From the NCBI GenBank assembly GCA_965262365.1, contig OZ253541.1, forward strand, positions 4,939,843 to 5,003,842: a stretch of 64,000 bases of DNA, given 5' to 3'. The DNA comes from Candidatus Rariloculaceae bacterium. Its GTDB lineage: Bacteria > Pseudomonadota > Gammaproteobacteria > Steroidobacterales > Rariloculaceae. Made by a program: the position numbers and the translations under genes. The notes beneath the pieces are model-generated. The model saw only the letters and a program-made list of their open reading frames with translations. It had not been told where the DNA came from and ran no database searches. Numbering within the stretch: the first letter of the stretch is position 1; every line of letters starts with the position of its first letter. This document shows, one piece after another, positions 27,773 to 61,609 of this stretch.

Positions 27773-27847
27773 TATCGAGTTCCGTCTTATCGAGTCCTGG
27801 CGAATCGAGTCTTGGCGAATGGGATTCTCGCGAATCGGGTTCGGGCG
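27773..27847. repeat. five imperfect 15-bp tandem repeats spanning the start of the next gene
   Basis: The five units are TATCGAGTTCCGTCT, TATCGAGTCCTGGCG, AATCGAGTCTTGGCG, AATGGGATTCTCGCG and AATCGGGTTCGGGCG. The ATG at 27819 lies in unit 4. Confidence 0.7.
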
Positions 27848-30438: not shown

Positions 30439-30456
30439 TGTGCCGGCGTCTCGTCC

Positions 30457-34163: not shown

Positions 34164-34293
34164 CGTTCCAATCTTAACGGACGAACAAGCCCCCGGGGGC
34201 CTCGATTCGTGCCGTGCGTTCCCTCAGGTCGGAGATATCGGAGCGGACCGCCCAGGCGTCGTACATCGCCGCGGAAACGATTGCGGCGGGTAT
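34164..34293. repeat. duplication junction scar between the two CRTAC1 copies
   Basis: 34164-34200 equals 36025-36062 (sequence just downstream of copy B). About 34201-34247 equals about 36150-36196 (3' end of the small membrane gene). About 34248-34275 equals 32176-32210 (inside the PAP2 gene). About 34276-34293 equals 32421-32455 (PAP2 gene start). Confidence 0.7.
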
Positions 34294-36024: not shown

Positions 36025-36126
36025 CGTTCCAATCTTAACGGACGAACAAGCCCCCGGGGGCTCTAGAATCGATTAACGAATTTCAGGCCATTGATCTCGC
36101 GGCTCAGCGCCGAAGGCGACCCTTGC

Positions 36127-43781: not shown

Positions 43782-43866
43782 GTGGTCTGCTTGCGACGGC
43801 GCGGGTACATTCGATCTACTTGAAGTCCGTGTCAGGCAGACCCAACACTATAGTACCGGCGATTTC

Positions 43867-44202
43867 CTACGGAGTCTGCGGCGCTTCAGACTCGAATCCG
43901 AACAGGTGGACTTCCACGCGGGTCAGGCGATTTTCGATGTTGTCCAGGCGACTGTCGACACTGACGGCCATCTCGCGGAGTCGGTTGTCGACATTGCCTA
44001 TCTCCTGCCGGAGCCCGATTTCGACATCGCCAATTCGCGTGTGCAGGTTCCCCGTGTCGGTGCGCAGGTCCCTGATGTCGGTGCGCAGGCCCCTGATGTC
44101 GGAATTGATTTCGGCAAACCCGGATTGCATCATTACGCCGAGGGCGCAGAAGGCCAGGATGATCGAGCAGATCACCGTCACGGTCCGGCCGTCCCATTTC
44201 AT
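43867..44202 (-). CDS. small single-pass membrane coiled-coil protein, 111 aa
   Basis: MKWDGRTVTVICSIILAFCALGVMM (TM) then NSDIRGLRTDIRDLRTDTGNLHTRIGDVEIGLRQEIGNVDNRLREMAVSVDSRLDNIENRLTRVEVHLFG. ATG at 44202 verified. A 21-bp tandem repeat lies at about 44050-44100. Confidence 0.5.
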   Translation of the reverse strand: MKWDGRTVTVICSIILAFCALGVMMQSGFAEINSDIRGLRTDIRDLRTDTGNLHTRIGDVEIGLRQEIGNVDNRLREMAVSVDSRLDNIENRLTRVEVHLFGFESEAPQTP

Positions 44203-44320
44203 TTCTCTATTCCAACTCCGGCAGGATGCCGTCATCGTATCATGCGGTCACTGCTGCTCAACGCACGAAACTGGACGGTTCGCTCAAATTTGGCCCCGCC
44301 GGTGCATCTGTATACCATCC

Positions 44321-46381
44321 ATGAAAGCCACGAGCCCATCCATGAAACCGGCATCCACCCGCATAGCAGCATTGCTCGCCCTTTCCCTCGCATCCGGCGT
44401 GACGCATGCGCAAGACGAGACGGCGACCTACACCATGACCTTCGAGGGGCTGTGGACGGCCGACGACATCACCGATGCCGGCATGCCGGGCGGTGCGCAC
44501 TTCACCGAAATGATCGGTGCCACGCACAATTCCGGCACGACGATATGGGTGTCCGGTGGCACGGCCAGCGCCGGAGTCGAGAATGTCGCCGAACTGGGAA
44601 GCGTGGGCACCCTGGTCAGCGAGATCGGTGGAAACGCCAACGCCGCCGGCGTCGTCCGGGCGGGGAGTGCCTTCATCAGTCCGACAGCGACGGTTTCCGG
44701 CACGTTCACCGCGAATTCAAGCCATCCCCTGGTCTCGGTCCTGTCCATGGTCGCTCCCACGCCGGACTGGTTCGTCGGTGTCTCCAACCTGAGACTGTAC
44801 GACAACGGTTGGCAGAATCGGGTTGTTGACCTTTATCCCTACGATGCGGGGACCGAGGAGGGTTCCGGCTGGTCGCTGAGCAACGCGGCCACAAGTCCGC
44901 AGGGCGTCATCACAAGCATCCGCAACACGGGCAGGTTCCGCGGCAACCCCATCGGCAGGCTCAGTTTTACGACCGATCAAACCACCGACAACGGGCAAAC
45001 CACCGGCGGGGGCACGGTGTCCCCTGTGGAGCCTCCGGTGACGATCGAGCCGCGTTCGATGCATTACACGGTCCCGTTGCTGGTTCCGTCGGGCACATCG
45101 GGCGGAGCCCTGGGGGTGCTGCGAATCCTCAACGCCACGGCCGAGACCGGACCGGTGGACATCTACGCCATCGACGATTTCGGTACCCGCAGCGGTCCGG
45201 CCACGTTCACGCTCGGCGCCTGGGCGGCGGCGGAGTTCACGGCCTCGGACCTGCGGTCCGGCAACGTCCTGCTGGACTTGGCCGGCGGCGTCGGCCCCGT
45301 GCGCGATGCGCGACTTCTGATCGGCACGGACCTGCGGATCGTGCCCCTGGCCTATGTCCGTGCCGCCGACGGCACGCTGAGCGCGATGCACGACACGGTG
45401 CGATCGGCGTCTGCGGACGGCTCGGGGCAGTACCGCTACGAAGTCCCGGTCTTCAATCCTTCCACCGAGACGATCCAGGCGAGCCGCCTGCGGTTGATCA
45501 ATCCGGGCGACGAGCAGGCCTCGGTCACGATCGGCGCACGCGACGACAGCGGTGCGGCGGCCACCGGCGGAGACGTGACATTGACGCTGGCGGCAGGCGC
45601 CGCAAAGACCCTGACGGCGCAGCAGCTCGAGGCCGGTGACAGCAGCATCGCGGGCCGGTTGGGCGCCGGGGTCGGCAAGTGGCGGCTGAGGGTGTCGTCG
45701 GATCGGCCTCTGCAGGTCGTGAACATGACCGCTTCCACCGCCGGGTACTGGAACAACCTTTCCACGACCGCGGTGGCCGGTGCGGCGCCGGCGGATCTGG
45801 CGGCGCTGAACGAGCGCGTCGTTGGCGAGAATGTCGTCTACGAGACGAACACCGGGCAATTCACGCTCAACGCCACGGAGGGCGGGCGGTTCACGGAGAC
45901 GGGCGACATCGACGGCGTCGCGACGAGCTTCATGGGCAGTTACGGCTATCGGGCAATCGGGCCCGATGCGGGCCGGCTGACGCTGATGTACGACGACGGC
46001 GATGCATGCCGGGCCAACTTTTACTTCTCGTCCCGGACGAACGGCTGGTTCGCATCGCACTGCACCGGCAGCGATGACCCGGACGGATTCTGGCTGGGTG
46101 GCAACTGGTCCATTACGGTGAACCGAGCTTCAACGGAGCCGGGTTCCCTTGGCGAGTGCTACGCGGGACTGCTTGTGGGCATCGGGCAGAGCTGCACGTA
46201 TCCCGGCACGACGGACGAGTTCAGCGTCAATGTACGGGGCCGCGGATCGTTCCTGACATTCCTGGCCGGTATCCGGATCCGGGTGAACAACCAGACGATC
46301 AACGGTCGTGTCTACGACTTCGAGGCCTCGCATCGGGGGGAAGGCGTGTGGCGGATCGACCGGGTGGCCGGCAGCACCTGA
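44321..46381 (+). CDS. secreted Spondin_N-domain protein with two copies of an unnamed module and a Cys-containing C-terminal module
   Basis: Signal peptide MKPASTRIAALLALSLASGVTHA (alternative ATG at 44342). YTMTFEGLW..GGAHFTEMIGATHN..VSVLSMVAPTPDWFVGVSNLRLYDNGWQ..YPYDAGTEEG is the spondin N-terminal pattern. Confidence 0.75.
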   Translation: MKATSPSMKPASTRIAALLALSLASGVTHAQDETATYTMTFEGLWTADDITDAGMPGGAHFTEMIGATHNSGTTIWVSGGTASAGVENVAELGSVGTLVSEIGGNANAAGVVRAGSAFISPTATVSGTFTANSSHPLVSVLSMVAPTPDWFVGVSNLRLYDNGWQNRVVDLYPYDAGTEEGSGWSLSNAATSPQGVITSIRNTGRFRGNPIGRLSFTTDQTTDNGQTTGGGTVSPVEPPVTIEPRSMHYTVPLLVPSGTSGGALGVLRILNATAETGPVDIYAIDDFGTRSGPATFTLGAWAAAEFTASDLRSGNVLLDLAGGVGPVRDARLLIGTDLRIVPLAYVRAADGTLSAMHDTVRSASADGSGQYRYEVPVFNPSTETIQASRLRLINPGDEQASVTIGARDDSGAAATGGDVTLTLAAGAAKTLTAQQLEAGDSSIAGRLGAGVGKWRLRVSSDRPLQVVNMTASTAGYWNNLSTTAVAGAAPADLAALNERVVGENVVYETNTGQFTLNATEGGRFTETGDIDGVATSFMGSYGYRAIGPDAGRLTLMYDDGDACRANFYFSSRTNGWFASHCTGSDDPDGFWLGGNWSITVNRASTEPGSLGECYAGLLVGIGQSCTYPGTTDEFSVNVRGRGSFLTFLAGIRIRVNNQTINGRVYDFEASHRGEGVWRIDRVAGST

Positions 46382-46487
46382 CCGCCAGCACGGCGCCGTT
46401 CCTCCTGCCTGCGCACGCTCGTTGGGCGCCGCCGTCTCTCCCCGATCCGGTCTGGAAGAACCCGATTGCTTTTCATACCATACCGCT

Positions 46488-48137
46488 GTGCACCCTTTGA
46501 AGCGTTCCTCACTTCGGATTGCCGCACTCGCGGCCCTTGTGCTGTGGGGTTCGGCCGCGCTGGCCGAGCACTACACGCTGCCGCTGTTCGTGACGTCGAC
46601 GACGGCCGGCACCACCCAGGGCGTGCTGCGGTTACTCAACGACACCGGGGAATCCGGCTCGGTCGAGATCCATGCCATCGACGATGCCGGCACTCGCACC
46701 GGTCCGGCCACCTTCACACTGAACGCCTGGACGGCGGTGGAATTCGATGCCTCGGAGCTTGCCTCCGGAAATGCCATGAAGGGGTTGTCCGAGGGACTGG
46801 GCACCCTGTCCGGCGATGTGCGTCTGGCGATCGAGACGGAGTTGCAGATCGTGCCCTCGGCGTATGTTCGCGCGGGCGACGGCACGCTCAGCGCGATGCA
46901 CGATACCGTGCGCGCCAGCGTCGCCGCAGGGGGAGGGGGCGGTTACAGGTACCTGGTGCCGATCTTCAATTCCGCGTCCGAGGTCACGCAGGTGAGCCGG
47001 TTGCGGTTGATCAATCCGGGGGCTCGGATCGCGTCCATCACCATTGAGGGCCGTGACGATACGGGCACCGCGGCCACCGGGGGAACCGTTCAACTCACGG
47101 TGCCGGGGGCGGCGCCGGTGGATCACGAGGCGTTCAACGAGCGCTTCGGCGCAAGCGGGATCGAATACCGGCGGGGCAGCGACCGCGTCACTTACATGAC
47201 ACCGGCGTCGGACCGGTTCACGGAGACGGGCGAGTCCGGCGGTGTCGCGTTTACCAACATGGGCAGCGATTGCTATCCGGGCCTATTGGTGCGGATCGAG
47301 GGGAGTTGTACGTATCCCGGCACGACCGACGAGTTTACCGTCAACGAGCGCGGAAGGGGCCGGTTCCTGACGTTTCTGGCCGGTATCCGGATCCGGGTCA
47401 ACAACGAGACCATCGACGGCCGTGTCTACGACTTCGAGGCCACGCACCAGGGTGACGGGGTATGGCGGATCGATCGGGTGGCCGGCATGACCGAGGTGCC
47501 GAGCTTCGGTGCGGCAGCGAATCCGGGGGACCGGACTTACATGGAAGGCGCCGCGATCGATCCGCTGACGCTGCCGGAGGCAACCGGCGGCAACGGCCGG
47601 CTGACGTACGGCCTGTCACCCGATGTACCCGGGTTGAGCTTCATCGCAAGCATGCGCCAGCTTACCGGCACGCCGTCGACGGCGGGCATTTACGACATGA
47701 CCTACACCGTGACCGATGCAGACGGCGACACCGATACGCTCGGCTTCACCATCACTGTCGAGGCAGCCGAAGACGAGGGTAATGGTGGCGGTGGCGGCGG
47801 TGGTGGCGGCACGGGTTCTGCGGTCACGGTGGAAAACGGGAGTTGCAGGGGTACGCGAACGGGTGCCTCAACTTTTAGCGTGCAAATGAGCGGTACCGTT
47901 CGGGCGCATCGTGCAGTGTCAAGCGTCCGGGTCCTTGGGTATGTAAACGGCTTGCTTCTGGGCGCAGACTCGCTGGGCGACATTCCGGCCGGAGGTACGA
48001 GGAACTTCTCCATCTCCGGCGACCTTACGATCACCGCGAACAGGATCTCCTCCTGCAACGCCGACATCCATTTCCTGCCCGCGGGCTCGGAACCAGGCGG
48101 CGGCTCGGTCAGCATTGACTTTGGTACGCAGCTTTAG
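46488..48137 (+). CDS. secreted protein: two unnamed modules + Cys module + He_PIG/cadherin-like Ig + Gly-run + C-terminal domain
   Basis: There is no ATG. A GTG at 46488 (or TTG at 46497) gives ..KRSSLRIAALAALVLWGSAALA. LTYGLSPDVPGLSFIASMRQLTGTPSTAGIYDMTYTVTDADGDTDTLGFTITV is He_PIG-like. Confidence 0.65.
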   Translation: MHPLKRSSLRIAALAALVLWGSAALAEHYTLPLFVTSTTAGTTQGVLRLLNDTGESGSVEIHAIDDAGTRTGPATFTLNAWTAVEFDASELASGNAMKGLSEGLGTLSGDVRLAIETELQIVPSAYVRAGDGTLSAMHDTVRASVAAGGGGGYRYLVPIFNSASEVTQVSRLRLINPGARIASITIEGRDDTGTAATGGTVQLTVPGAAPVDHEAFNERFGASGIEYRRGSDRVTYMTPASDRFTETGESGGVAFTNMGSDCYPGLLVRIEGSCTYPGTTDEFTVNERGRGRFLTFLAGIRIRVNNETIDGRVYDFEATHQGDGVWRIDRVAGMTEVPSFGAAANPGDRTYMEGAAIDPLTLPEATGGNGRLTYGLSPDVPGLSFIASMRQLTGTPSTAGIYDMTYTVTDADGDTDTLGFTITVEAAEDEGNGGGGGGGGGTGSAVTVENGSCRGTRTGASTFSVQMSGTVRAHRAVSSVRVLGYVNGLLLGADSLGDIPAGGTRNFSISGDLTITANRISSCNADIHFLPAGSEPGGGSVSIDFGTQL

Positions 48138-48176
48138 AAGTTGGCGCCGCCATCGATGCGGCACGTCACTCCGACG

Positions 48177-50212
48177 TCACTCCACCACCTGCAACGCTTC
48201 CCGCAAAACCTCCACGCCCTGTGCGTCCAGGATCACCGCCTGGCGTACCGGTCTCGTCGGGACCGGCGTGCGGGCCGCCCAACCCGCCTCGCCACCATCG
48301 CTGAGAACGTTGATGGACAGCGGCTCCCGGTAGAGCTCCACGCCGTCCCCGTCAAACAGGATCAGCGTAAACGGCCCTTCAGGATCTGGTGCTCTGGGCC
48401 CCCTGTCGGTGCTTTGGGCGTGCGCTGTGCCGTACCGCCCGATTGCGTAAACGGTTGCACGCCGAGCGTGCCCGTCGCTGAGCGGGTGCGACGCCGGTAG
48501 TTCAGTGCGTTTCGATAGTGATAGTCGGACACAAACGCATACTGGCCGCAATAGGACATCAGATCCGTGTGTCCCTCGTCATCGTTCGAAACGAATCGCC
48601 GCCAGTTCACATCCCATCCGGCGTGCGGCCCCAGCCCACCGTCAGCGTAGGGATAGCTGAAGTCGACAGATGTTGCGCTACAACCCGGCGTATGCTGCAA
48701 ACCGAAGTTGTGTCCGAATTCGTGAGGAATCACATTGGGCGAGGAGATCGTGCTCACAGCCACATTGCCGGACAATTCCGCGAGGCCGGCGGTTCGCGCA
48801 GCACGCGCATCGTCCCCCAGCCACGGCCAGATGAACACGCCGTGGTACCGGACATCAGGGATCGGGCATCGACAGTCGGCGGCTCGTCACCGGGAAAATA
48901 CAGGGGGATGAACGTAACCCGAAACGGCGACAGTTCGTCGCCGTATAACCGGATCGGCTCGCCCGTGTTGTCGTCCTCGTTCGTCTCGGCAAGTTCGTCG
49001 TCGGCGCGGCCTGGTCGAGACGTTCGGCAAGCACGCTGCCCTGGCTGTCCAGCACGCGTGTGATGACCAGGGGCGGCTCCGATACTTCATGGTCGATCCT
49101 CACCGCCAACGCCGCCCAACGGCCAGGGACCGGCCGCTGACGCTCCCGGGGGGCGCCTCGCCAGTCCCACTCCCACACCAGCGGTCCCTGATAGTAGGAA
49201 ACCGAATGGTGAGTTGCATTGCCGTTGTCCGCGGCGTTTCCCGACCAGACCGGTCGCATGCTGACTTGCGGGGGAGGTTCGAACCCGCGAATCGCATTTC
49301 CGTCGTGCCGCAACACAAGTTCGCGGCGCGCGATGCGCTCCCAAAGAGCCCGGGGCACAGTTCCCGTCAATCGATTGGATTGCACGTACAGTCCGCTCAA
49401 GAAGGCCGGATTTGCGAGTTCCGGAGGAATTGATCCGGTCAACCGATTGCCGGAGAGGTCCAGGGTCTGCAGGTTGGCCAGATTTCCGAGCTCCCAGGGA
49501 ATCGGCCCCGACAATCGCTGACCAGACCGGGGTTTCTATCCGGATCCGTCACATAGCTGCCGTCGCCGCACCGCTCGAGTGTGCGCGCCGTGTCCGGCTC
49601 GCTGTCACAGTGGTCGCTCACGCCATCGCCGTCGGCATCCTCCGGACCGCCGACGCACGGGTCCAGAAACCACGGTCGTGTCGAACTGGTGGACAGATTG
49701 GTCAGGTGCCCCGCGGTGTCTTCCACCAGGCTCATGACCTGGATGCCCCGATCGGCCTGAACGGCCAACCGCCACCCGCCTTCCCCCTCTCCGAAGCTCC
49801 CGCTCAGCCCCCTGGCGCCGTCCTGGAGGGATTCGGCGCTCAGGGATGTCGAGGCACCTGAGGCCAGGGAAAGGCTCACCGCTCCCTCCGGCGCCTCATC
49901 GCCGGCATCGTCCCATGCCCGGATCTCGATCTGCGCGGCCCCCTCGGACGGATTGATCAGCCGCACCGCACTGCCATCCGGGAGACCGCTGTCGGGCGCC
50001 AGCGGCTCGATATCCAGCGACGTGTCCAGGACGAGCCGCCAGTCGCCCTGACCGGTGCCGATGCGAACCATTCCTTCGCGCAAGGCATCGGATACCGATG
50101 GCAGCAGGGGAAGACGGTAGGTGTCCGCCGAGGTATCGAGCGGCATGAAGAACAAGAGCACCACCAGGGCTCCGACGCCTGTGTGTCGATGAAATGCTCT
50201 TTTTTCACCCAT
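48177..50212 (-). pseudogene. multi-frameshift gene: signal peptide + unnamed module + TSP3-like + plant-type LRR + HExxHxxGxxH zinc metalloprotease
   Basis: Four successive frames. 49439-50212: signal peptide, module, DADGDGVSDHCD. 48855-49514: LSGPIPWELGNLANLQTLDLSGNRLTGSIPPEL. A third frame around 48840-48990: FRVTFIPLYFPGDEPP. 48362-48838: VIPHEFGHNFGLQH. 48177-48551: C-terminal domain. Confidence 0.7.
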
Positions 50213-50262: not shown

Positions 50263-51200
50263 CTAATCGGCCGCGGCGGCGAGCCGTCTCAGGCCCGAGA
50301 AGTCCCGCTCGGTGACCGTCGCCGACGCCTTCACCTCCACCCCGACAATCCGCCCGCGCGTATCCTCGATCACGAAATCGACTTCGTTTCGCTCCTTGTC
50401 GCGAAAGTGCGAGAACTCATAACGATCCTCCGCCCAACTGGCCAACTTGAGCAGTTCGCCGAGTACGAAACTTTCCAGCAGCGGTCCCCAGGGCGTCCTG
50501 TCCCGGCGCAAGCGGTCCAGCGTTACGCCCCTCAGGGTGGCCAGCAACCCGGAATCGAGAAAATGAAGCTTCGGCGCCTTCACGAGGCGCTTAAGAGTGT
50601 TGCTGTACCACGGCGGCAACGTGTGCAATAGAAACAGTCCTTCGAGAATGCGGAGGTATTTTTGGGTCGTCACGTGATTCATCCCGAGCACCGCCCCGAA
50701 ACCGGAGTAGTTGACGAGTCCACCGGAATGCTCGGCCACCACTCGCAGCAGTCCGGGCATCAAGCCGAGCTGTGCGATTTGAGCGATCTCGCGGATGTCG
50801 CGCTGAACAATGGCCTCAATGTAGTCCCTGTGCCAATCCTGTCGGCGCCGCCATCCCGACCGGCTCAGCGCCTCCGGATACCCGCCCGCGAGCACGGTCT
50901 CGATCAGGTCATCGCCGAGTACCGCCGTGGTAGCCGTTGTGGCATCGCCGGAAAATGTACGTGCCAGGAAGTGCGATGGGGTTTCTCGTATCTCCGACTG
51001 GGCCAGGGGAAGGAGCCGAATGATTGCCATGCGCCCCGCGAGTGAGTCCGCGACACGTGGGAGCGTCATGAGGTTTGCCGAGCCGGTAAGCAGATAGCGA
51101 CCGGGCCGTGGGTCGGCGTCCACGGCGGCCTTGATCGCCAGCATCAGGTCGGGCGCGCCGATGCGGCGATTGGCGCAGAAGAACTTCCGACGTTTCAGTG
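50263..51200 (-). pseudogene. 5'-truncated AAA ATPase with DUF4143
   Basis: APDLMLAIKAAVDADPRPGRYLLTGSANLMTL...EVDFVIEDTRGRIVGVEVKASATV matches the DUF4143 ATPase family. The Walker A-containing N-terminal roughly 110 aa are absent and are replaced by a Sel1 fragment. Confidence 0.6.
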
Positions 51201-51214
51201 TCGCCCGCCGCACA

Positions 51215-51262
51215 GTCTCGCCGTGGCGTACTACAACGGATACGGTGTACCTCAGGACCTGG
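51215..51262 (+). repeat. Sel1-repeat gene fragment
   Basis: TCTCGCCGTGGCGTACTACAACGGATACGGTGTACCTCAGGACC matches 61268-61312 of the intact Sel1 gene (VAYYNG.GV). Confidence 0.6.
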
Positions 51263-51311
51263 AACACCATCGTATACACCCAATCACGCTAACGGGCCTT
51301 GTAGACGACCT

Positions 51312-51455: not shown

Positions 51456-51487
51456 CAATTCAGAGCGAAGGTCGCCTATATCTCCGC

Positions 51488-51693
51488 CGGATGACTCCCG
51501 TAGTAGATGCGCAACCGCCAGGCATCCAGATTGCCCGTGTCGTCCTCGGCGCCGTCGAAGACCTCGATCTGCCAATCGCCGTTCGGGTCCTCGCCGCAGA
51601 ACGCGTTGCTCAACAGGCGCCAGCGAATCTGCTCGAGATCGTTCACGGCATGGAGAGCGCCAAATGCGGCCATTGCTTCGAGTGCATGATTGA
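51488..51693 (-). pseudogene. proprotein-convertase P-domain-like remnant, dispersed repeat copy A
   Basis: The minus strand encodes HALEAMAAFGALHAVNDLEQIRWRLLSNAFCGEDPNGDWQIEVFDGAEDDTGNLDAWRLRIYYGSHP. It is near-identical at DNA level to 59624-59960, apart from a roughly 140-bp internal deletion. Confidence 0.6.
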
Positions 51694-51800
51694 GTTCCAT
51701 GGGTGAGATAGCCAATGGTTCAATTATGCTATGTAATAATCGTGTTAATTCACTCTGTTTCGCAGAACGACAGAAGTCTGCAGACTTGGGAGGGAGACCC

Positions 51801-53699
51801 ATGAGCAATGGCCGCTGCACGCGTGGAAATCCGTGGGCGCGTATCTTTGTCGCGCTTTATGTCCTTGTTCTGGCGTACGGCTGTTCGGCGCCCCAGGTCA
51901 TCGATGTGGATTTCAGCGTTCTCGACCCCGAGCAACAGGCGGTGGAAGAGAACGCGCTGATACGTCCGGGCTCCACGTTGACACTGAGCAGCATTACCGC
52001 CATCAGCAGCGACGGCACGCAAAGCACCCTGGCGGAGTCCGACGAGTACATCGTGACGGTTCTGGGTGGAACCTATGACGCCGCGACCCGCGAAGTGCAT
52101 TTCAGCGAAGTCCCCGCCGACGTGCCTCCGCAAGGCTACGAAGTGGCGATCCAGCACGCTGACGGTGTCGGCACGGTCATGCGTTTCACACCGGACTTTG
52201 CCGGCATCCATGGGCCGGAGCCGGGCGATGTGGTGTCCTTCGAAGTGAACCTGGAGTGGAGTCGGGACGGCCAGAGGTATTCCATTGGCGAAGGCACGCC
52301 GCTGATCCCCGGCGAAGCCTACAGCCTTCATGCGGTCGCCCGGGATACCCTGGGGCGCACGTTCGAAACCGGCAGCGACAGCAACACGATTCCCGCCGAG
52401 CGGCTCGCCACGACGCTGGCAAACCTGACCGCCGGTGGTGACGACGGGTCCATGCTGGTCGCAGGCAGCGGCGCACCAGGCCAGGAATACCGTATGGAAG
52501 TGCGTTACGGCGGCGACGAGAGGCACGCCATAATCCTCGAATTCCCCCTGGATCCCGCCATCTCCCAGGGCCCGCAACCGCAAGCCGTTACCCGCGTGGA
52601 AATCCTCGGCGAACTGAGCGATGGCGCACCCATCCGACCCGGCGATGCAAAGCCGCTGCAGGTGCGGGTAGCGGACATCCGCGGCCGAACGTGGCTGCTC
52701 GATATGGATGGCGGCGGTTCCCACGCGGACAATCAATACCGGCTGCCGCCTTCGCGCCTCCAGGTTCTGGTGGAGAACGGGGTCTACGACCAGGGCGCCG
52801 GGCGGGTTCAATTCGACGCCGACGCCGAAGCCATGCTGGAAATGACCTACGGGTTGGAGGTGAGATACGACTCGGACCCGTTGCTGGCCGACGCAAGGGA
52901 ATACCAGCCGGACTTCCTGGCCGTCGTACCGCTCATGGAAACGGACGAACTTGTCTACGCGGGACAGGATGTTCGCGAGGGGCAGTCGGGCCAGAGTGGC
53001 CAGAACGGCGCCCGCGGCAACGACACCAACCGCGAGATGGGCCGCGGAGGCGGCGGTCGCAACGGCGGCAACGGCACCAACGGTCAGACGGGCGCCCGGG
53101 GCGCCGTTGGCCCGAGTCTGCGTGTGGTCGCCCGCGAGGTGCGCACCCTGGACTCGGAGACGCGTCTGGCGCTGTTTGAAGTGCGCGTGCCGGGCGCGCC
53201 GCCGGAGTACTACCTCCGCGCAATGGACGATTCCCCGGTCACTATCGTCAGCCGCGGCGGCAGCGGCGGCACCGGCGGCGATGGCGGCGATGCCTATTTC
53301 TCGGGTTCCGGCGGCGATGGCGGTGCCGCGGGCAGCGGCGGTGACGGCGGTGACGGCGGCAATGGCGGCAACGTCGTATTGATCCTTGCTTCCTTCGACC
53401 TGGAAGGCGTGTTCGTTCTGGACAGCCGGGGCGGCGGTGGGGGCCGGGGAGGCGCCGAGGGCGTTGCTGGCCGTCCCGGCAGTCCGGGCTCGGTGGGCAA
53501 CTGGAATGAGGCCGATATCCCCAGGGATCAGGTCATGCCGGAAGTCGGCGCGTACGGCAATGAAGGCAACATCGGCCACACTGGGCGTGACGGATTCGAC
53601 GGTCAACCGGGCACTGTGGAGTTCATTGTCGAGGAAGAACAGGCGGGGGCGCTGGTGAGGCGCACGCCGGTGGGCATACAGACCGTGATACTCTTTTGA
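51801..53699 (+). CDS. lipoprotein with three beta-rich repeats and a collagen-like/Gly-rich C-terminal third
   Basis: RBS GGGAGGGAG precedes the ATG at 51801. The signal RIFVALYVLVLAYGC has a lipobox. The Gly-rich tail includes GQSGQSGQNGARGND..GGNGTNGQTGARGAVGP..GGSGGTGGDGGDAYFSGSGGDGGAAGSGGDGGDGGNGGNVVLIL..GGGGGRGGAEGVAGRPGSPGS. Confidence 0.65.
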   Translation: MSNGRCTRGNPWARIFVALYVLVLAYGCSAPQVIDVDFSVLDPEQQAVEENALIRPGSTLTLSSITAISSDGTQSTLAESDEYIVTVLGGTYDAATREVHFSEVPADVPPQGYEVAIQHADGVGTVMRFTPDFAGIHGPEPGDVVSFEVNLEWSRDGQRYSIGEGTPLIPGEAYSLHAVARDTLGRTFETGSDSNTIPAERLATTLANLTAGGDDGSMLVAGSGAPGQEYRMEVRYGGDERHAIILEFPLDPAISQGPQPQAVTRVEILGELSDGAPIRPGDAKPLQVRVADIRGRTWLLDMDGGGSHADNQYRLPPSRLQVLVENGVYDQGAGRVQFDADAEAMLEMTYGLEVRYDSDPLLADAREYQPDFLAVVPLMETDELVYAGQDVREGQSGQSGQNGARGNDTNREMGRGGGGRNGGNGTNGQTGARGAVGPSLRVVAREVRTLDSETRLALFEVRVPGAPPEYYLRAMDDSPVTIVSRGGSGGTGGDGGDAYFSGSGGDGGAAGSGGDGGDGGNGGNVVLILASFDLEGVFVLDSRGGGGGRGGAEGVAGRPGSPGSVGNWNEADIPRDQVMPEVGAYGNEGNIGHTGRDGFDGQPGTVEFIVEEEQAGALVRRTPVGIQTVILF

Positions 53700-53702
53700 C
53701 GC

Positions 53703-55025
53703 ATGAATTCCACCAGAGAAGATCAGGCCGCACCTGACCGGGGCCGAGGGCACGAACACGGTTTCAAGGCTTCCCGCCTTCGTCAGAAGGCGCTGGCCAT
53801 ATTCACCGTCGTGGTAATTTCGGCGGTGTGTTTTCTCGTTTATATCAGTGCGGACGTGACAGTCCGGCGTCTGGTCAACGAAGCTCAAACCGCCCTGCCG
53901 GAAGGCGATCTGAGGGCGGTGGATCTGCAAGCCGCCGCAACGAGATTTCAACGCGCGCTGGAAATCAGACCCAGTGACGCCTACTTGCTGGATGCCGCGG
54001 ACTTGCTGCAACAGCGCGTCGCCGAGCAGGTGGGCCGCGACATCGCGCGGAGCGAACTGGACCTGGCGGATAAAATCCTCGCCGCCGCGAGCGAATCCTG
54101 GTCCGACATCGAGAGGTTTGGCGACACCGGCGAGTTGCGAAGCGCCCTGGACAGCGCGTGGCTGCAACAGCAGATTCGCGAGGAAGTAGCCGGGTTTGTC
54201 GCCGCCGCGCTGGAGGTGTTGGCCGGCGGCGTGACGGACGGCGAACGCATCGACGACATCAGGGCGGCGTTGCAGCAATTGCGCCAGGCCCTCGATCTGG
54301 ACCCCGACAACGACCGCGCTCGAACGCTGCGCGACGACGCTCGCCTCGACCTTATGGCAGCAGCCCGCCGCGAGCTCAAGGCAGGCAACCAGGATCGGGC
54401 GGAGGACTTGCTGGAAGTGGCCCAGGACGAGTGGCGCGACGACGATGCCATCGCAGAGCTGCGCGATGAACTGAGGCAGCTTTTCGACGAACTTTCCGCG
54501 GCCTCGGAACTGCGCCGGCTGATCGACCTTGGCGAACAGCGGCTTGCCGCGGACAACCTGTCCACGCCCACGGGCGACAGCGCGGTGGATTACTTCCGCC
54601 GGGCGTTGGCGCTGGATTCCGACAACGAGCAGGCCGCCGCGGGACTGTCGCAATTGGCCGACCGCTACGCGCTCCTGGGTTGGGATGCCGTTGAACGCGG
54701 CGACATTGCCGAGTCGCGCCGACTTCTGTCGAAGCTCACCGAAGTGGCGCCGCAACATCCCGAGGCCGGCCCGCTGCAAGCGCGAATCGAGGCGGCGGAG
54801 GAAACCGAGCAAGTCGAGCAGGAGCAACAGGCGGCCCGGGAAGAACCTTCCCAGGCGCCTCCACCCGGTCCCGTGATTGCCGACGACGAAGAAGGCCGCC
54901 TCTGGTCGGAGGTGATGAGCCTGTGCGACGAGACTCAGCTACGCCGCTACATCAACGGGTATCCCGCCGGCCGGTATATCGACGAAGCCTGGAGCAGGCT
55001 CTCGGCCTGCCGGGCAGGCCGCTGA
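53703..55025 (+). CDS. membrane-anchored TPR-like/helical-repeat protein
   Basis: Starts 4 nt after the preceding stop. It has one TM (ALAIFTVVVISAVCFLVYISA), then helical repeats (FQRALEIRPSDAYLL, LRQALDLDPDNDRA, YFRRALALDSDNEQA) and a C-terminal ..LRRYINGYPAGRYIDEAWSRL. Confidence 0.6.
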   Translation: MNSTREDQAAPDRGRGHEHGFKASRLRQKALAIFTVVVISAVCFLVYISADVTVRRLVNEAQTALPEGDLRAVDLQAAATRFQRALEIRPSDAYLLDAADLLQQRVAEQVGRDIARSELDLADKILAAASESWSDIERFGDTGELRSALDSAWLQQQIREEVAGFVAAALEVLAGGVTDGERIDDIRAALQQLRQALDLDPDNDRARTLRDDARLDLMAAARRELKAGNQDRAEDLLEVAQDEWRDDDAIAELRDELRQLFDELSAASELRRLIDLGEQRLAADNLSTPTGDSAVDYFRRALALDSDNEQAAAGLSQLADRYALLGWDAVERGDIAESRRLLSKLTEVAPQHPEAGPLQARIEAAEETEQVEQEQQAAREEPSQAPPPGPVIADDEEGRLWSEVMSLCDETQLRRYINGYPAGRYIDEAWSRLSACRAGR

Positions 55026-55069
55026 CAGGAGGTGACAGATCGACAGGGGCTTGCTTTCTTCGATGCGCG

Positions 55070-55262
55070 GCATAGCGGCACTACTTGCACTTTCCCTCGC
55101 CGTCGGCGTTCGCTTTCGAATTGCCGAACAGCTCTCCGCTTCGGACCTTGTCACTCGGGCGCCGACTCGACCGACATTGGCATGAACCGCGGCATGATCG
55201 CCAAAATGGCCCGCCGATGCGCAGATTTGCGCGACGCGCGCGCCACACGCTGGCACGTGCGC
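55070..55262 (+). pseudogene. collinear mini-copy of the Sel1 gene locus (three fused segments)
   Basis: 55070-55108 matches 60578-60612 (signal-peptide region). 55106-55153 matches 61373-61425 (3' end: RFRIAEQLSASDLVT). 55154-55262 matches 61498-61600 (downstream non-coding DNA). Confidence 0.65.
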
Positions 55263-55410
55263 TGGCCGAAACCGGTCGATGAAATCCGTGCCGTCGCGCA
55301 CCAATGATCACCCGCGCGCATATCACCCGCCGTGCCTTGCATCCTTTCGGATCGTGCCGCAAACAGGTACCCGGCCTTCGGACAGTTTCTTCCACCGGCT
55401 TGCGCCCGCT

Positions 55411-55529
55411 GCATGATTGATTTCCTGTGTGATGCGGAAGAACGCAGTGAGAGGATCCGGCAAGCTCGAACTTGAGCAGTCGGCAGCGAAATCATGTTCG
55501 TTGGTCGAATCGCTACCGGTCCGCGGCGG
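55411..55529 (-). repeat. dispersed repeat copy C (segment adjoining the P-domain remnant)
   Basis: GCATGATTGATTTCCTGTGTGATGCGG.A.AACGCAGTGAGAGGATCCGGCAAGCTCGAACTTGAGC..TCGGCAGCGAAATCATGTTCGTTG matches 59958-60076. Confidence 0.65.
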
Positions 55530-55610
55530 GCAGTACGGAGCCTCCCACCGGAGCTTATGGCCTCTCTTGCAGGGACGGTTGAATGTCCAGGCTCCCGAGA
55601 ACAACCGGCG

Positions 55611-55909
55611 ATGAAACCGGCACCAAAGAGCATAGCGGCAATACTGGCACTTTCCCTCGCCGCCGCCGCGAGTGCCCAGACCCTTGACCTGGGTGTCGCG
55701 AAGTTCACGGCCGGCGACTATGCGGGCGCGCTTCGGGACCTTGTGCCCTTGGCCGAGCAGGGCAGCTCAACGGCCATGAAGACGCGGCTGGCGCCCGCTA
55801 TCGGATTGCCGAACAACTCTCACCGTCGGACCTTGTCATCGCCCAACAGATCGCGCAGCAGTGTCTCGAGCAGGGTTACGAATACTGCGTTAGACAAGAT
55901 GAGAGATAA
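55611..55909 (+). pseudogene. Sel1-repeat gene with all repeats deleted and a frame change
   Basis: MKPAPKSIAAILALSLAAAASAQTLDLGVAKFTAGDYAGALRDLVPLAEQGSSTA parallels the intact gene N-terminus. It then jumps, out of frame, to GHEDAAGARYRIAEQLSPSDLVIAQQIAQQCLEQGYEYCV, the equivalent of the intact gene's last about 40 aa. Confidence 0.7.
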
Positions 55910-55947: not shown

Positions 55948-56475
55948 TCAATCCGTCAGCAGGTGGCCATGGCAGTTCAGTTGCGCGTCGACGGCAAGAA
56001 ACGCCGCGCCGCAGCGTTCCAACCAATTCAGGCCGTCGGCTGGCTGTTTAAGTAACGCGATCGAGGCAATGGAACCGGCAACGACCGCTTGCCCCGCGGC
56101 GACGCTGACGCTCAAGAGGCCTTCTACCGGCCAGCCGGTGCGAGGATCGACCAGGGTTCATCGTCGGGTTGCGGTCCGACGATGCAAATGTCGCCGCCCA
56201 GATTGACCAGTCCGTGACGGATACCGGCCTTTCTGGCGATGATTGCCGTCGCATCGGCGACGTATTCCTTCACCACGCCGCCGAAATCCAGTTCCATCCC
56301 CTCCAGGGGCAGATAGATTTGCTTCTCGGAATACTCCACCTTCAACCAGCCGACCCTGGCCAGGCAGGCGTCCAATTCGCTCTGTCGAGGCAAAGTCGTG
56401 CGCCGTCGATGCCACACCCGGCGGAACACTCCTGATGTGATGTCAAACAGCCCGTCGCTCTGTTCGTAGCACACT
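55948..56475 (-). pseudogene. ApbE (FAD:protein FMN transferase) fragment, 5'-truncated and frameshifted
   Basis: FDITSGVF..ELDACLARVGWLKVEY..MELDFGGVVKEYVADATAIIARKAGIRHGLVNLGGDICIVG..EPW. After a frame change near 56125 it continues SVSVAAGQAVVAGSIASIALLKQPADGLNWLERCGAAFLAVD. Confidence 0.6.
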
Positions 56476-56830
56476 GACGCGTACTTCTCGCTGCCCATGT
56501 AACGGTCGACGCTCATGGTCAGCGCCCATCGCGGTTGCTGGACGATCCCCTTGAGGCCGACGGTCGCCGCGCCATAGGCGGACAAGCGGAGATCGCTGGA
56601 CTGGCTGAGGTCGGGCGGCAGAATGAAATTGTCGATGGGCAGGTAGAAGTCGGCGGCGGACTGACTGTAATAGCGAAGATTCGGGACGATCTGGAACCGG
56701 GCGCCGATGTTCTGGTACCAGGACGTGTGCAGCGTGTGCGAGGCAATTCCCCAGTCGTCGTCAAAGTAGCGGTAATCCAGGTGCAGGGCGCCGTCTCGAG
56801 CGACCTTACCGTTGTCAGAAATCCCGAAGA
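56476..56830 (-). pseudogene. DUF3570 outer-membrane protein fragment fused to the ApbE fragment
   Basis: LHLDYRYFDDDWGIASHTLHTSWYQNIGARFQIVPNLRYYSQSAADFY matches the DUF3570 pattern (YRYY.DDWGI.SHT...RYYSQ.AADFY). It lacks both of its own ends. Confidence 0.5.
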
Positions 56831-58565
56831 CGGCACGCAAGACTATATCGACACCAACAAGAGAGCACTGCAAGCTCTGGTCGAGGAGAAGGGTGCGGGC
56901 CACATCCTGAACAAGGTTCAGGCGATCGGCGGTCACGGTGGCGGACCTGTGGTGAAACAAGGCACGTTTGAATTCGTCAATCTCGAGCGCTTCCTCCGCG
57001 GCGAAGAAAGTGGCTCAACGGCACCCGCGATCACCGTGGACAACCTCTTCGAAGGCGTCACCATGGAGTCGCCGGCGCGAACTCTGTGGCGTGCCGCCAT
57101 TCTGTTTGCAGGGCGACTGCCGACTCAGGACGAGCTCGACGCCGTGCAGTACGGCCTGGGATCCAAGATGCGAGAAATTATTCGCGGCTACATGGACGGC
57201 CCTGCGTTCCACCAATTCCTGATCGATGGAGCCAATGATCGGTTGCTGACGGACCGAGGTCTCGAACACCGAGTCATCGATCTCGGTTCGCACGAATTCG
57301 TAGCGCTGAACAGGAAGTTCATCGAGGCCCTGAGATCGGCAGCGCGTCGTGGATACGAAGAACGTTGGGAAGATCCTCAGTACCGTGACTGGGAACGTGC
57401 CATTTCGGAAGGGGCCGCCCGAGCTCCGATCGAGCTTATCGCCCGTGTGGTCGAGAACGATCTACATTACAAAGAGATTCTGACGGCCAACTACATCATG
57501 GCGAATCCGAAAATGGCGGAAGCCTATGGTGCCTCGACCGAATTCGAAAATACAAATGACATCGACGAATTCAAGCCATCGACGATTGTGGACTACTACC
57601 GAAAGGACGATTCGAAGATAATCTCCAACGATCCAGAGTTTGACGTCAATGTTGTGATCAACTCGGGGAACTTGCAAACCACCTATCCGCACGCAGGTAT
57701 TCTGAACACGACATCCTTCCTGCAGCGCTACCCCTCGACGGCCACGAACCGCAACAGGGCACGTTCGCGCTGGACTTACTATCACTTCCTCGGTTGGGAT
57801 GTAGAAAAGTCGACGCAGCGCACCACGGATGCCGCGATTCTGGCCGACACCGATAACCCGACCATGTACAACCCGGCCTGTACGCACTGTCACGAGGCGC
57901 TCGGGCAATAGCAATACGTTTGAGATCATCCACTGTCCCGTAGTGGTGCCGGTGGACATTCCAAGCGACGACCATTACGAGGTACAGGTGGAAGTCTATG
58001 TCGGCTATAACTACTCCGACGAGCCCGATCAACCGGCCACAATGGCCGTGTGGGTGGCTGTACCGCAGTGGCACCAATAGAGCTACCCCAAGACGACACC
58101 TACACGATCGAGGTCGTCGCTTATCAGCGTCGCCTCGGAGACGAATCGGCGCGGATGGTGGTGGTCGTCGAATCGGACGATGGGGGTGCCGCCAGCGAAG
58201 CTGTCATTCGCGACAAGCTGGCCGACCTGCACTGGAAGCTGTTCGGTGCCGAAGTAGAGCCCGACTCACCCGATGTGAACGAAGCCTATGAATTGTTCTT
58301 CAAGGTGTGGTCCACGAAGCGCCGCACGGAATCCGGTCATTTCCATGACTCCGGATTCCGCTGCGACCCAGATGACAAGACTTACTACGATGAATTTTTC
58401 GATTCGATCGCCAGCTACAACGAATGGGGACATCCTGAGTGGGACAATCAGCGTATCGATCAGTTCAATGAAAACCTGAACATGACCGACTCGGTGCAGG
58501 TAGTCAGGGCATGGTCGGTCGTTCTGGCTTTCCTGATGACCGACTCTCGGTACTTTTATTTGTAG
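56827..58565 (+). pseudogene. large CxxCH-motif protein of the type that partners DUF1501 (DUF1549/1553- or DUF1588-like), 5'-truncated and broken into three frames
   Basis: FAGRLPTQDELDAV, NDRLLTDR, HAGILNTTSFLQRYPSTATNRNRARSRWTYYHFLG, NPACTHCHEALGQ, then a stop at 57909-57911. Two further ORF pieces follow (57829-58080 and 58050-58565), the last ending ..VLAFLMTDSRYFYL just before the DUF1501 gene. Confidence 0.5.
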
Positions 58566-59600: not shown

Positions 59601-59623
59601 CCTCATTCTTCCCCCTCTTCCGC

Positions 59624-60076
59624 GGGATGACTCCCATAGTAGATGCGCAACCGCCACGCATCCAGATTGCCCGTGTCGTCCGCGGCGCCGTCGAAGCCCT
59701 CGATCTGCCAATCGCCGTTCGGGCCCTCGCCGTAGAACGCGTTGCTCAGCAGGCGCCAGCGAATCTGCTCGATATCGTTCACGGCCAGCGTCTCGGAGTC
59801 TTCGGAAAAAATGGCGCCCGCAACGAGGCGGCCTCCGACCGCGCGCCGCGTTCCAGAACCAGTTGGTTGAGAACGTCGAAGTCGTCAAGCTCCACGCGAA
59901 TTGTGGGCGATACGACAAGCGTCATGGAGAGCGCCATATGCGGCCATTGCTTCGAGTGCATGATTGATTTCCTGTGTGATGCGGGACAACGCAGTGAGAG
60001 GATCCGGCAAGCTCGAACTTGAGCGCTCGGCAGCGAAATCATGTTCGTTGTTCGAATCGCTACCGGTCTGCGGCGG
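59624..60076 (-). pseudogene. P-domain-like remnant, dispersed repeat copy B (longest copy)
   Basis: The minus strand, in three frames, reads ...SLPDPLTALSRITQEINHALEAMAAYGAL / MTLVVSPTIRVELDDFDVLNQLVLERG / ETLAVNDIEQIRWRLLSNAFYGEGPNGDWQIEGFDGAADDTGNLDAWRLRIYYGSHP. The last has the F.GE..NG.W.L...D...D.G.L..W.L pattern. Confidence 0.65.
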
Positions 60077-60280
60077 ACTATAGCGCACGGCATCGGAAAA
60101 TTTGCGGAGCCGGACTTGATCCTGGCGTAATACCCGCAATGCGCCGACACCGTCAGAGCGCCTAGACCAATGATCAGGGCTACGCATACTGCGTCAGATA
60201 GGGAACCCGACCAGTCCGGTCTGGATGAATCCGATTGATTGTCATACCATGTCAGCCACGAGCCTACCCGCGTTAGTAGG

Positions 60281-60470
60281 AGACTGTACGACAACGGTTG
60301 GCAGAATCGGGTCGTTGACCTTTGTCCCTACGATGCCGGGACCGAGCCGGTGGATATCTACGCCATCGACGATTCCGGTACCCGTATCGGTTCGGCCACC
60401 TTCACGCTCGGCGCCTCGGCGGCGGCGGAGACGTGGCATCGTTCCTGACGTTCCTGGCCGATATCGACAG
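60281..60470 (+). pseudogene. collinear three-segment mini-copy of the Spondin_N/module gene
   Basis: 60281-60345 matches 44793-44858 (RLYDNGWQNRVVDL.PYDAGTE). 60346-60428 matches 45149-45231 (PVDIYAIDD.GTR.G.ATFTLGA.AAAE). About 60435-60470 matches about 46243-46278 (SFLTFLA). The frame is kept across the first junction only. Confidence 0.75.
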
Positions 60471-60555
60471 GCTCTCCCTGCATCGGCGGAATCCCGACCT
60501 CCGTTGTAAAATCGCGCATGGATTGCGTTTACCAGGCTCCCGAGAACAACCAACG

Positions 60556-61485
60556 ATGAAACCGGCATTCAAGTGTATAGCGGCACTACTCGCACTTTCC
60601 CTCGCCGTCGCCGTGAGTGCCCAGACCATGGACCAGGGTATTGCGAAGTTCAGCAGCGGCGACTATGAGGGAGCGCTCCGGGATCTGATGCCCTTCGCCG
60701 AACAGGGCAGCTCGACGGCGCAGTACCTTGTCGGTGCGATTTACGCCAACGGCCAGGGCGTCGTGCGCGACAATGTGGCCGCGGCGAGCTGGATAAGGCG
60801 CGCCGCGGAGCAGGAACATGCTCGCGCCCAGTTCTATCTCGGGCAAATGCATGAGCGGGGTCAGGGCGTCGACGCGGACCACGCCGAAGCCGCCCGGTGG
60901 TATGGGCGGGCTGCGTACCTGGGAGACGCGCAGGCGCAGTACAGGCTAGGAACGATGCGGGAGCTGGGGCTTGGCGTCGATCGGGATTTGGGTGAAGCAG
61001 CGAATTTGTACCGCAGCGCCGCCGAGCAGGACCATGCGGACGCTCAGGAGAGCCTCGGCGTGATGTACACCACCGGACAGGGAGTCGACCGGCATTACGG
61101 CGATGCAGTTATCTGGTTCGGCCGGGCGGCCGAGCAGGGGCACGCCCGGGCCCAATTCAGTCTCGGCGTGATGTACGCGGACGGACTGGGCGTCGAGCCG
61201 GACAGCGAGCAGGCGATCTACTGGTATCGTCGAGCCGCCGAGCAGGGGCACGCCCGGGCCCAATTCAATCTCGGCGTGGCGTACTACAACGGAGACGGTG
61301 TACGTAGGGACCCGGTACTTGCGTATGTCTGGGCCAATGTTGCGGCGTCCAGCGGTCATGAAGACGCTGCCGGCGTTCGCTTTCGAATTGCCGAACAGCT
61401 CTCCGCTTCGGACCTTGTCACTGCCCAACAGATTGTGCTCCAGTGCCGCCAGCAGGGTCACGAATACTGCGTCACGTTGCGCTGA
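60556..61485 (+). CDS. secreted Sel1-repeat (SLR) protein, intact
   Basis: Signal peptide MKPAFKCIAALLALSLAVAVSAQ, followed by about 7 Sel1 units (AAEQGHARAQFSLGVMYADGLGVEPDSEQAIYWYRRAAEQGHARAQFNLGVAYYNGDGV...). Confidence 0.85.
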   Translation: MKPAFKCIAALLALSLAVAVSAQTMDQGIAKFSSGDYEGALRDLMPFAEQGSSTAQYLVGAIYANGQGVVRDNVAAASWIRRAAEQEHARAQFYLGQMHERGQGVDADHAEAARWYGRAAYLGDAQAQYRLGTMRELGLGVDRDLGEAANLYRSAAEQDHADAQESLGVMYTTGQGVDRHYGDAVIWFGRAAEQGHARAQFSLGVMYADGLGVEPDSEQAIYWYRRAAEQGHARAQFNLGVAYYNGDGVRRDPVLAYVWANVAASSGHEDAAGVRFRIAEQLSASDLVTAQQIVLQCRQQGHEYCVTLR

Positions 61486-61609
61486 ACAGCGAACGTACGG
61501 GCGCCGACCCGGCCGACATTGGCATGAACCGCGGCATGATCGCCAAAAATGGCACGCCGATGCGCAGTTCTGCGGGACGCGCGCCACACTGTGCTATGGT
61601 CGAGCGAAC

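Follow-up and report, generated by a model that had tools for sequence, protein, structure and literature searches.

Two adjacent genes in a 64,000-nt stretch of the genome of Candidatus Rariloculaceae bacterium (contig OZ253541.1, positions 4,939,843 to 5,003,842) encode a lipoprotein of an unnamed family with 632 residues (gene 1, open reading frame 51801-53699) and a single-pass membrane protein of 440 residues with tetratricopeptide repeats (TPR) (gene 2, open reading frame 53703-55025). The whole stretch is called "the window" below; coordinates count from its first letter and are given for the + strand unless stated otherwise. In six relatives the homologues of both genes stand beside genes for a putative envelope motor, i.e. 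a MotA/ExbB/TolQ-family protein and a vWA (von Willebrand factor A) protein, and no trace of these motor genes was detected in the window. We read the pair as the envelope-side half of a four-gene module that is selectively maintained here without its motor, and assign this overall picture a probability of about 0.5. The two proteins would then add partners not described before to a class of motors that was proposed only recently, and the window has them without the motor. The functional statements made below all come from computation.

Conserved pairing, and TolQ-like and vWA genes in relatives

Motors of the MotAB, ExbBD and TolQR type drive flagella and gliding, fuel nutrient import and keep the outer membrane stable. 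A motor tipped by a vWA domain was proposed in 2025 with its target left open, and the lipoprotein and the TPR adaptor, which travel with such a motor in one clade, are concrete candidates. The motor-less copy in the window offers a natural test of whether the pair has a function by itself.

Eleven gene neighbourhoods were read, the window included. The preliminary description of the locus, made from the sequence and a list of its open reading frames, had singled out the two genes as a pair, and their adjacency turned out to be conserved across relatives. The opposite outcome that it had allowed for, two well-annotated families with no conserved pairing, applies to neither protein. Six relatives (L001, L003, L004, L009, L010 and L012), with lipoprotein identities of 46-82%, carry MotA/ExbB/TolQ-family and vWA genes beside the lipoprotein and TPR genes, and in these motor-bearing relatives the vWA gene overlaps the stop of the MotA/ExbB/TolQ-family gene (families assigned by Pfam). 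The gene order is lipoprotein-TPR-MotA-vWA in L003 and L012, and MotA-vWA-lipoprotein with a convergent TPR gene in the other four. The membership of the four genes is constant across all six, while order and strand are permuted, and we regard the four-gene membership in these relatives as close to certain. Co-occurrence counted by cross-matching the lists of homologues is a lower bound; the vWA gene of L012, where the cluster follows the nuo genes in housekeeping surroundings, went unrecognised that way. The lipoprotein, TPR and MotA-like proteins are taken to be co-inherited because their pairwise identity matrices correlate with r values of 0.94-0.97.

The spacer between the two genes in the window is 3 nt long (stop TGA, CGC, start ATG), one less than the 4 nt first given. 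Neither this close spacing nor the translational coupling that had been suggested for the pair is conserved; the TPR gene is read from the opposite strand in L001, L004, L009 and L010.

The vWA proteins of the relatives begin with a nearly invariant helix, SA(I/V)DLFASGMGAFILIA, whose aspartate is invariant, followed by a Cys/Pro-rich CPxCP linker. In L003 (14230-15315) and in the homologues P0106-P0171 this linker consists of CPxCP/CPECPE repeats, a Cys/Pro-rich composition not usually seen in periplasmic spacers. The linker may be a rigid rod and might contain disulfide cross-links or bind metal.

A tolQ-like gene paired with a "TPH-vWA" (transpore-helix vWA) gene, without tolR/exbD, has been proposed as a new class of force transducers of unknown function (PMC12204202, Mol Biol Evol 2025, section 8); our literature search found no other description of such a tolQ-like/vWA pair. 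The six relatives resemble these systems in that the lipoprotein-TPR pair adjoins MotA/ExbB/TolQ-family and Asp-helix vWA genes with overlapping stop and start, again without tolR/exbD. In contrast, PMC12204202 names no outer-membrane partner and describes mostly heterologous pairs of vWA genes, whereas the relatives have a single vWA gene together with a lipoprotein and a TPR protein. A further difference is that the motor genes are missing from the window itself.

For L003, the closest four-gene relative (82% identity), DNA homology detected by blastn covers 51746-55026 of the window and ends at the stop codon of the TPR gene, so that a homology breakpoint can be placed at 55026-55027. L003 continues past the TPR gene with the TolQ-like and vWA genes. 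In the window, the position of the motor genes is filled by scrambled fragments of a Sel1-repeat gene region (55098-55890; self-blastn match to 59957-61589, Pfam scan of 60322-61485). Neither tblastn of the 64-kb window nor a profile hidden Markov model search of its six-frame translation, even at E<=10, revealed a remnant of a MotA-like or vWA gene. A conspecific contig (L006) has the same arrangement, and the motor module was not found on it either. No vWA protein with at least 65% identity to that of L003 is recorded on contigs of this species. L006 was located via the TPR protein; an exact-match search with the lipoprotein of the window gave none.

Comparison of the two conspecific copies showed that gene 1 differs by three synonymous and no non-synonymous changes plus a 27-bp in-frame deletion in the window, and that gene 2 is identical. 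Against L003, the ratio of non-synonymous to synonymous substitution rates (dN/dS) is 0.27 for gene 1 (0.22-0.31 for the individual domains) and 0.53 for gene 2. In our reading of these comparisons, the pair appears to be still under purifying selection and not decaying.

The lipoprotein and the TPR protein

Homologues of the lipoprotein number 57 at E<=1e-61; all are annotated as "hypothetical", have about 630-690 residues and share 28-83% identity. The few that carry a taxonomic label come from metagenome-assembled genomes of Gammaproteobacteria and Deltaproteobacteria. The lipobox, Pfam and conservation analyses were made with 52 family members. Neither Pfam nor NCBIfam has a matching family for the window protein or any of the 52 members, the collagen and Gly_rich_2 models (E 0.013 for the latter) staying below their cut-offs. 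As already stated in the preliminary description, neither protein of the pair can thus be assigned to a named family, the only curated matches (Pfam, NCBIfam) being generic TPR repeats in protein 2. Among PDB sequences, a profile of the lipoprotein hit nothing but artificial Gly-Ser linkers. Scans of the genome contigs with the protein and with an alignment found no relative, the candidates being swamped by glycine-rich patterns.

The N-terminus (51801-51884) is a signal peptide that ends in a lipobox, LAYG/C, as had been predicted. In the window protein VLVLAYG precedes the cysteine, and this residue (Cys28) is invariant in the 52 sequences. The PROSITE-type pattern [LIVMFWSTAG]2-[LIVMFYSTAGCQ]-[AGS]-C, with no charge in the preceding six positions, is found in 48 of the 52 members including that of the window, and none of the 48 has aspartate at position +2. 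Since Asp at +2 is never present, the sorting rule known from E. coli suggests that the lipoprotein is probably sited in the outer membrane.

Three repeats of about 110 residues, which had been noticed by eye, follow the lipobox, i.e. residues 29-140 (51885-52220), 141-258 (52221-52574) and 259-374 (52575-52922), the third with an invariant PDF(L) motif at its end. Profile-profile comparison with HHalign supports their homology, with probabilities of 96.7-98.9% and E values from 4e-10 to 2e-17; repeat 1 scores 96.7% and 98.9% against repeats 2 and 3, respectively. An AlphaFold2 model built with the family alignment (mean predicted local distance difference test, pLDDT, of 87) contains three beta-sandwich domains, one per repeat, and a C-terminal domain. 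Foldseek matched the whole chain to tandem Ig-like, cadherin, S-layer and Big-domain proteins, and we refer to the repeats as Ig-like.

The C-terminal domain comprises residues 375-632 (258 residues; 52923-53696), in which runs of glycine with a period of three lie among short beta strands. Six runs have at least 90% conserved Gly at period 3 (residues 388-406, 419-437, 486-496, 502-523, 545-563 and 583-604), and most columns that are invariant in the lipoprotein family are these glycines. The G-x-y triplets of the initial reading are therefore real and conserved. Its "collagen-like/poly-Gly tail" is better described as a confidently predicted domain of Gly segments alternating with beta strands, and the possibility of a low-complexity extension without conservation is at odds with the finding that this is the most conserved region of the lipoprotein. 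When the domain was modelled alone with AlphaFold2, the pLDDT was 85.5, and most Gly runs had values of 90 or higher while DSSP assigned neither helix nor strand to them. The Gly-triplet segments are probably similar to polyproline-II or polyglycine-II helices. The runs contain conserved acidic residues (GDGGDGG, GNEGN, GRDG.DG).

Several known glycine-rich folds were compared. A collagen triple helix (PF01391) was rejected; the window protein has no Pfam match to it, and the best of the 52 members reaches E 0.0025, below the cut-off. Weak sub-threshold collagen matches occur in 13 of the 52 members, and the Gly runs are only 4-8 triplets long. The domain shares G-x-y periodicity with collagen, but the prediction for it is a compact fold of a monomer and not a trimeric rod. 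Foldseek with the C-terminal domain alone found no significant match in the PDB. The top match was the snow flea antifreeze protein (3bog), a six-helix polyproline-II bundle, with a non-significant E value of 0.08 and no detectable sequence homology. The "PGII sandwich" models of mycobacterial PE_PGRS proteins (PMC11364801, PMC9436101) also share with the domain the recurrence of Gly in every third position and the GGxGGx motifs. The likeness to polyproline-II/polyglycine-II bundles extends to the tolerance of whole-triplet indels and to a confident AlphaFold2 prediction without alpha or beta assignment; in contrast to those bundles, the Gly runs alternate with beta strands here, within a 258-residue domain of a proteobacterial lipoprotein.

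The domain is not confined to this family. When 1.84 billion cluster representatives were searched with a profile of the C-terminal domain, 1734 proteins were found at E<=1e-3, 375 of them at E<=1e-10. About 50 clusters have the architecture of the window protein, many other carriers are lipoproteins of about 360 residues with a single N-terminal beta domain, and a third group consists of long proteins (about 1000 residues) in which the domain directly precedes DUF7932 (PF25560). The last architecture accounts for a match in BFVD to a predicted protein of Terrestrivirus, a giant virus, annotated as DUF7932 (E 6e-11), because the Gly-triplet domain and DUF7932 are separate neighbours in the long distant proteins; the Pfam model of DUF7932 matched none of the 52 family members. 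Going by the predicted models, the Gly-triplet domain is a widespread folded domain without a curated family. It occurs in at least 375 sequence clusters and has a confident predicted fold, and there is no curated family or solved structure for it. Carriers with other architectures are P0248, P0310, P0319, P0226, P0227, P0239 and P0250, the last with the domain between a TPR region and TonB_C domains. Another short lipoprotein with the domain is encoded on a contig (L011) that is too short for its gene context.

The 27-bp deletion in gene 1 (53262-53281) removed nine residues (GGSGGSGGA), i.e. three GGx units of the third Gly run, as seen by comparison with the conspecific copy and with 48 of the 51 relatives in the alignment. 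It is placed after codon 485 by the alignment or near 53272 by a blastn-style comparison, the exact position being ambiguous within a (GGCGGCNNN)n repeat. Because it lies within this repeat, the deletion is attributed to slippage.

For the TPR protein 19 homologues were found. The single transmembrane helix that had been predicted corresponds to residues 30-48 (ALAIFTVVVISAVCFLVYI; 53790-53846), with a hydropathy maximum of 2.78 over 19 residues, and is preceded by a conserved basic motif, GF..(S/P)R.R.K. The basic N-terminus is probably oriented toward the cytoplasm. A helical region of TPR repeats, predicted to be periplasmic, follows (53847-54797) and includes RQALDLDPDN and RRALALDSDN. The initial assignment to TPR-like repeats is borne out by Pfam scores above the cut-offs (TPR_11 34.5 bits, cut-off 26.8; TPR_2 30.4, cut-off 27; TPR_19 28.3, cut-off 25) and by conservation of the (R/Q)AL.LD.DN motifs, with L197, P201 and N203 invariant in the family alignment. 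The profile of protein 2 matches structures of consensus TPR proteins with E values down to 1.8e-11. Matches to PilW and TraC were discarded, as they are far below the cut-offs and reflect the TPR repeats only. Pfam and NCBIfam gave no TonB_C or TolA domain, and no SHLS motif or His was found in the transmembrane helix. Next in the family alignment comes an acidic linker rich in Glu, Gln and Pro and of variable length (54798-54875).

The most conserved part of protein 2 is its C-terminus, residues 392-440 (49 residues; 54876-55022). The segment LRRYINGYPAGRYIDEAWSRL, which had looked conserved from the window sequence, proved to be so in the family. We term this part the two-cysteine module. 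It has the pattern D.E..LW..V...C....L.RY...YP.GRYI.EAW.R...C, holds most of the invariant columns of the family (D395, E397, W401, R415, Y416, Y420, P421, G423, R424 and C436 are invariant, C408 nearly so) and has no match in Pfam. All 3318 open reading frame segments of the window and of the loci retrieved by then were searched with a profile of the module; L012 was added afterwards and inspected visually. The only significant match was the gene adjoining the lipoprotein gene, in 10 of the 11 neighbourhoods with the window included, or 9 of 10 with the window excluded. In the most distant locus (L005), the matches were marginal (E 7e-4 to 3e-3).

The carrier of the module is not always a TPR protein. 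In L007, from a Deltaproteobacteria lineage, the module is part of a secreted C14 caspase that was outside the training set of the profile (E 1.2e-10), and in L008 it is part of a shorter helical protein. The module thus appears to have been swapped between TPR and caspase proteins. It seems likely from these sequences that it is an extracytoplasmic, disulfide-bonded unit, since a signal peptide or a transmembrane helix is present in all carriers and both cysteines of the module are conserved. From the gene neighbourhoods we infer that it is the lipoprotein-binding part of its carrier, because it accompanies the lipoprotein while the remainder of the carrier changes.

A possible trans-envelope machine and alternative explanations

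The following mechanism can be proposed. The lipoprotein would be held in the outer membrane by its lipid anchor, and its three Ig-like repeats would serve as spacers that hold out a rigid domain, in which glycine-triplet segments would be packed against beta strands. Protein 2 would be a TPR scaffold anchored in the inner membrane, with scaffold and docking module facing the periplasm, and the two-cysteine module, on its flexible acidic linker, would dock onto the lipoprotein. The conserved lipobox, the signal peptide or transmembrane helix on each partner and the paired cysteines fit a periplasmic location. In complete systems, a TolQ-like pentamer would drive the vWA protein as an axle, with the Asp-bearing N-terminal helix inside the TolQ/ExbB-like channel. 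The motor would pull or turn the Cys/Pro-rich rod tipped by the vWA domain, which would act on the lipoprotein-TPR complex. In the genome of the window, the motor would have been removed or separated by a rearrangement that fell precisely on the stop codon of the TPR gene, and the remaining pair would form a passive bridge from the inner to the outer membrane or be served by another motor. For docking and force transmission we see about even odds or less.

Integrin I-domains bind collagen. By analogy, it is plausible that the acidic residues in the Gly runs are ligands for the metal-ion site of the vWA domain. In its most far-reaching form, the proposal would make the lipoprotein the missing outer-membrane target of the TolQ-like/TPH-vWA motors, with its acidic residues in the Gly triplets gripped by the vWA metal-ion site as by an integrin I-domain, and held by the TPR protein via a portable two-cysteine module; together they would be an undescribed proton-driven trans-envelope machine, and the Gly-triplet domain a new and widespread polyproline-II/beta fold. 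We consider this combination doubtful.

The proposed layout is similar to that of the Tol-Pal (TolQRA, Pal, CpoB) and Ton systems, which likewise have a proton channel in the inner membrane, a protein that spans the periplasm, an outer-membrane lipoprotein and a TPR protein. The fusion of the distant Gly-triplet carrier P0250 to TonB_C is an additional likeness to the Ton system. However, there is no sequence relationship, protein 2 has neither the SHLS/His motif nor a TolA/TonB C-terminal domain, and the lipoprotein of the window differs from that of Tol-Pal in having no OmpA-like peptidoglycan-binding domain. In the Agl-Glt gliding machinery of Myxococcus with CglB (PMC9946355), a TolQR-type motor is coupled, across the periplasm, to a lipoprotein of the outer membrane and to a vWA domain. 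There the vWA domain belongs to the outer-membrane lipoprotein CglB, whereas it would be part of the motor axle here, and the components differ.

Several points weigh against the reading of the pair as the envelope half of a motor module. The N-terminal helix of the vWA proteins has no statistical similarity to MotB, ExbD or TolR among PDB sequences and in Pfam, and its role as an "axle" is deduced from the aspartate, from the gene context and from the AlphaFold 3 models of the cited paper (PMC12204202). Distant lipoprotein homologues (identity of 45% or less) have no motor nearby, their neighbours being caspases, a kinase/FHA/PP2C trio and FecR/NosD genes, and the motor may be an add-on of one clade and not what the system is for. 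Elsewhere in the 6-Mb genome, the motor could be present as a more distant or uncalled copy. With regard to the Gly-triplet domain, the sole structural hint of a polyproline-II geometry is the non-significant match to 3bog (E 0.08), and the loss of three Gly triplets from the window copy might impair folding.

The pair could instead be a self-sufficient adhesin of the surface or envelope, with a surface-exposed lipoprotein that contacts a host or matrix, a TPR protein that aids its export or anchoring, and a motor that is incidental in the relatives. Such a function would be compatible with the Foldseek matches of the N-terminal part to adhesion and surface proteins (cadherins, S-layer proteins, LigA, FdeC, Hoc), with the many eukaryote-like adhesion domains of the window (Spondin_N, Calx-beta, FG-GAP, LRR, Sel1, He_PIG) and with the intact motor-less pair in two strains. 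However, the Ig-like matches are generic, with whole-chain TM-scores of 0.1-0.2, the pair is not linked to any machinery for export or surface exposure, and by Pfam the Gly domain does not qualify as a collagen triple helix. Moreover, the four genes form tight operons in the closest clade even amid housekeeping genes, as after nuo in L012, and we regard the adhesin as unlikely. Bacterial conflict systems repeatedly contain vWA, caspase, TPR and FHA/PP2C domains, and the pair might also be an extracytoplasmic sensor for stress, conflict or cell-death signalling, for which the module carriers and the neighbouring vWA, kinase, FHA and PP2C proteins would be interchangeable effectors or transducers. 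The surroundings of two homologues point in this direction. The lipoprotein gene of L007 (3-3969) lies between the module-bearing C14 caspase and a DUF4384 protein, which is cut by the contig end so that its N-terminus is unseen, and that of L008 is flanked by a trio of Ser/Thr kinase, FHA and PP2C genes. A sensor is nevertheless quite improbable, as neither protein of the window matches the defence-system models of PADLOC, the MotA-like protein has only generic ZorA-type similarity (best E 4.5e-7 over about 70-130 residues), the core cluster encodes no nuclease, NTPase or toxin domain, and the neighbourhood of L012 is of the housekeeping type.

A further explanation is that the two genes are a functionless relic, not yet degraded after the loss of the motor. 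The fragmentary state of the surrounding DNA, the absence of the motor from the window, the fairly high dN/dS of 0.53 for the TPR gene and the 27-bp deletion in a conserved Gly run could all be seen in this way. In contrast, both open reading frames are intact in two strains, which have identical TPR genes and lipoprotein genes that differ by no more than the three synonymous changes and the in-frame slippage indel, and the dN/dS of 0.27 for the lipoprotein gene is matched by values of 0.22-0.31 in every domain tested. A relic is therefore improbable as well, and the selectively maintained envelope half of a motor module is the explanation that we prefer.

Flanks of the pair and the remainder of the window

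A Shine-Dalgarno-like sequence, GGGAGGGAG, can be read at 51788-51796, i.e. 5-13 nt before the start codon of gene 1. A scan for promoters and terminators gave no signal above chance. Both genes are spanned by an antisense open reading frame of 1025 residues (51750-54827, - strand), which is taken to be a high-GC artefact and was rejected. The GC content at codon positions did not separate the + strand genes from it; they were favoured because they have conserved homologues with dN/dS <1 and curated TPR matches.

The preliminary description had placed the start of the pair at a repeat-mediated breakpoint, and the self-comparison confirmed this. A repeat copy at 51483-51706 matches 59619-59979, where a DUF1501 gene ends and a spacer follows, with identities of 94.6% and 91.8% (self-blastn), and stops 95 bp short of the start codon of gene 1. 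Together with the Sel1 fragments downstream of gene 2, both flanks are scrambled copies of the region at 59.6-61.6 kb (the DUF1501 gene end and the Sel1-repeat gene). L006 and the window are colinear, with 99.6% identity, from 51718 up to the last position of the window. Exactly where the window has other sequence, upstream of 51718, L006 contains an IS66 element (L006 5500-7959) with TnpA, TnpB and a DDE transposase. Because IS66 replaces the sequence of the window there, this spot, some 80 bp upstream of gene 1, is a point of recurrent rearrangement.

A Pfam scan showed that the flanking genes are fragmentary, in line with the earlier impression of an intact pair amid decayed DNA. The remnants include an N-terminally truncated gene for an AAA_14/DUF4143 ATPase (50263-51279, - strand), a P_proprotein fragment antisense to the start of gene 1 (51476-51820, - strand) and a chimera in which a piece of DUF3570 and a piece of ApbE are fused in one open reading frame (56124-56960, - strand). 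Sel1 fragments are also among them.

In the wider window, open reading frames with eukaryote-like adhesion and repeat domains (Calx-beta, Spondin_N, He_PIG, LRR and Sel1) are clustered at 40686-49514 and 60322-61485, which suggests a host-associated lifestyle. Two duplications were also observed. A tandem duplication (32412-34209 and 34273-36071, 89% identity) has an open reading frame of 576 residues with FG-GAP/ASPIC (UnbV) similarity on the - strand of each copy. The second duplicated segment (26499-27777 and 29175-30453, 90% identity) contains AhpC/TSA-thioredoxin-like open reading frames of 441 and 454 residues.

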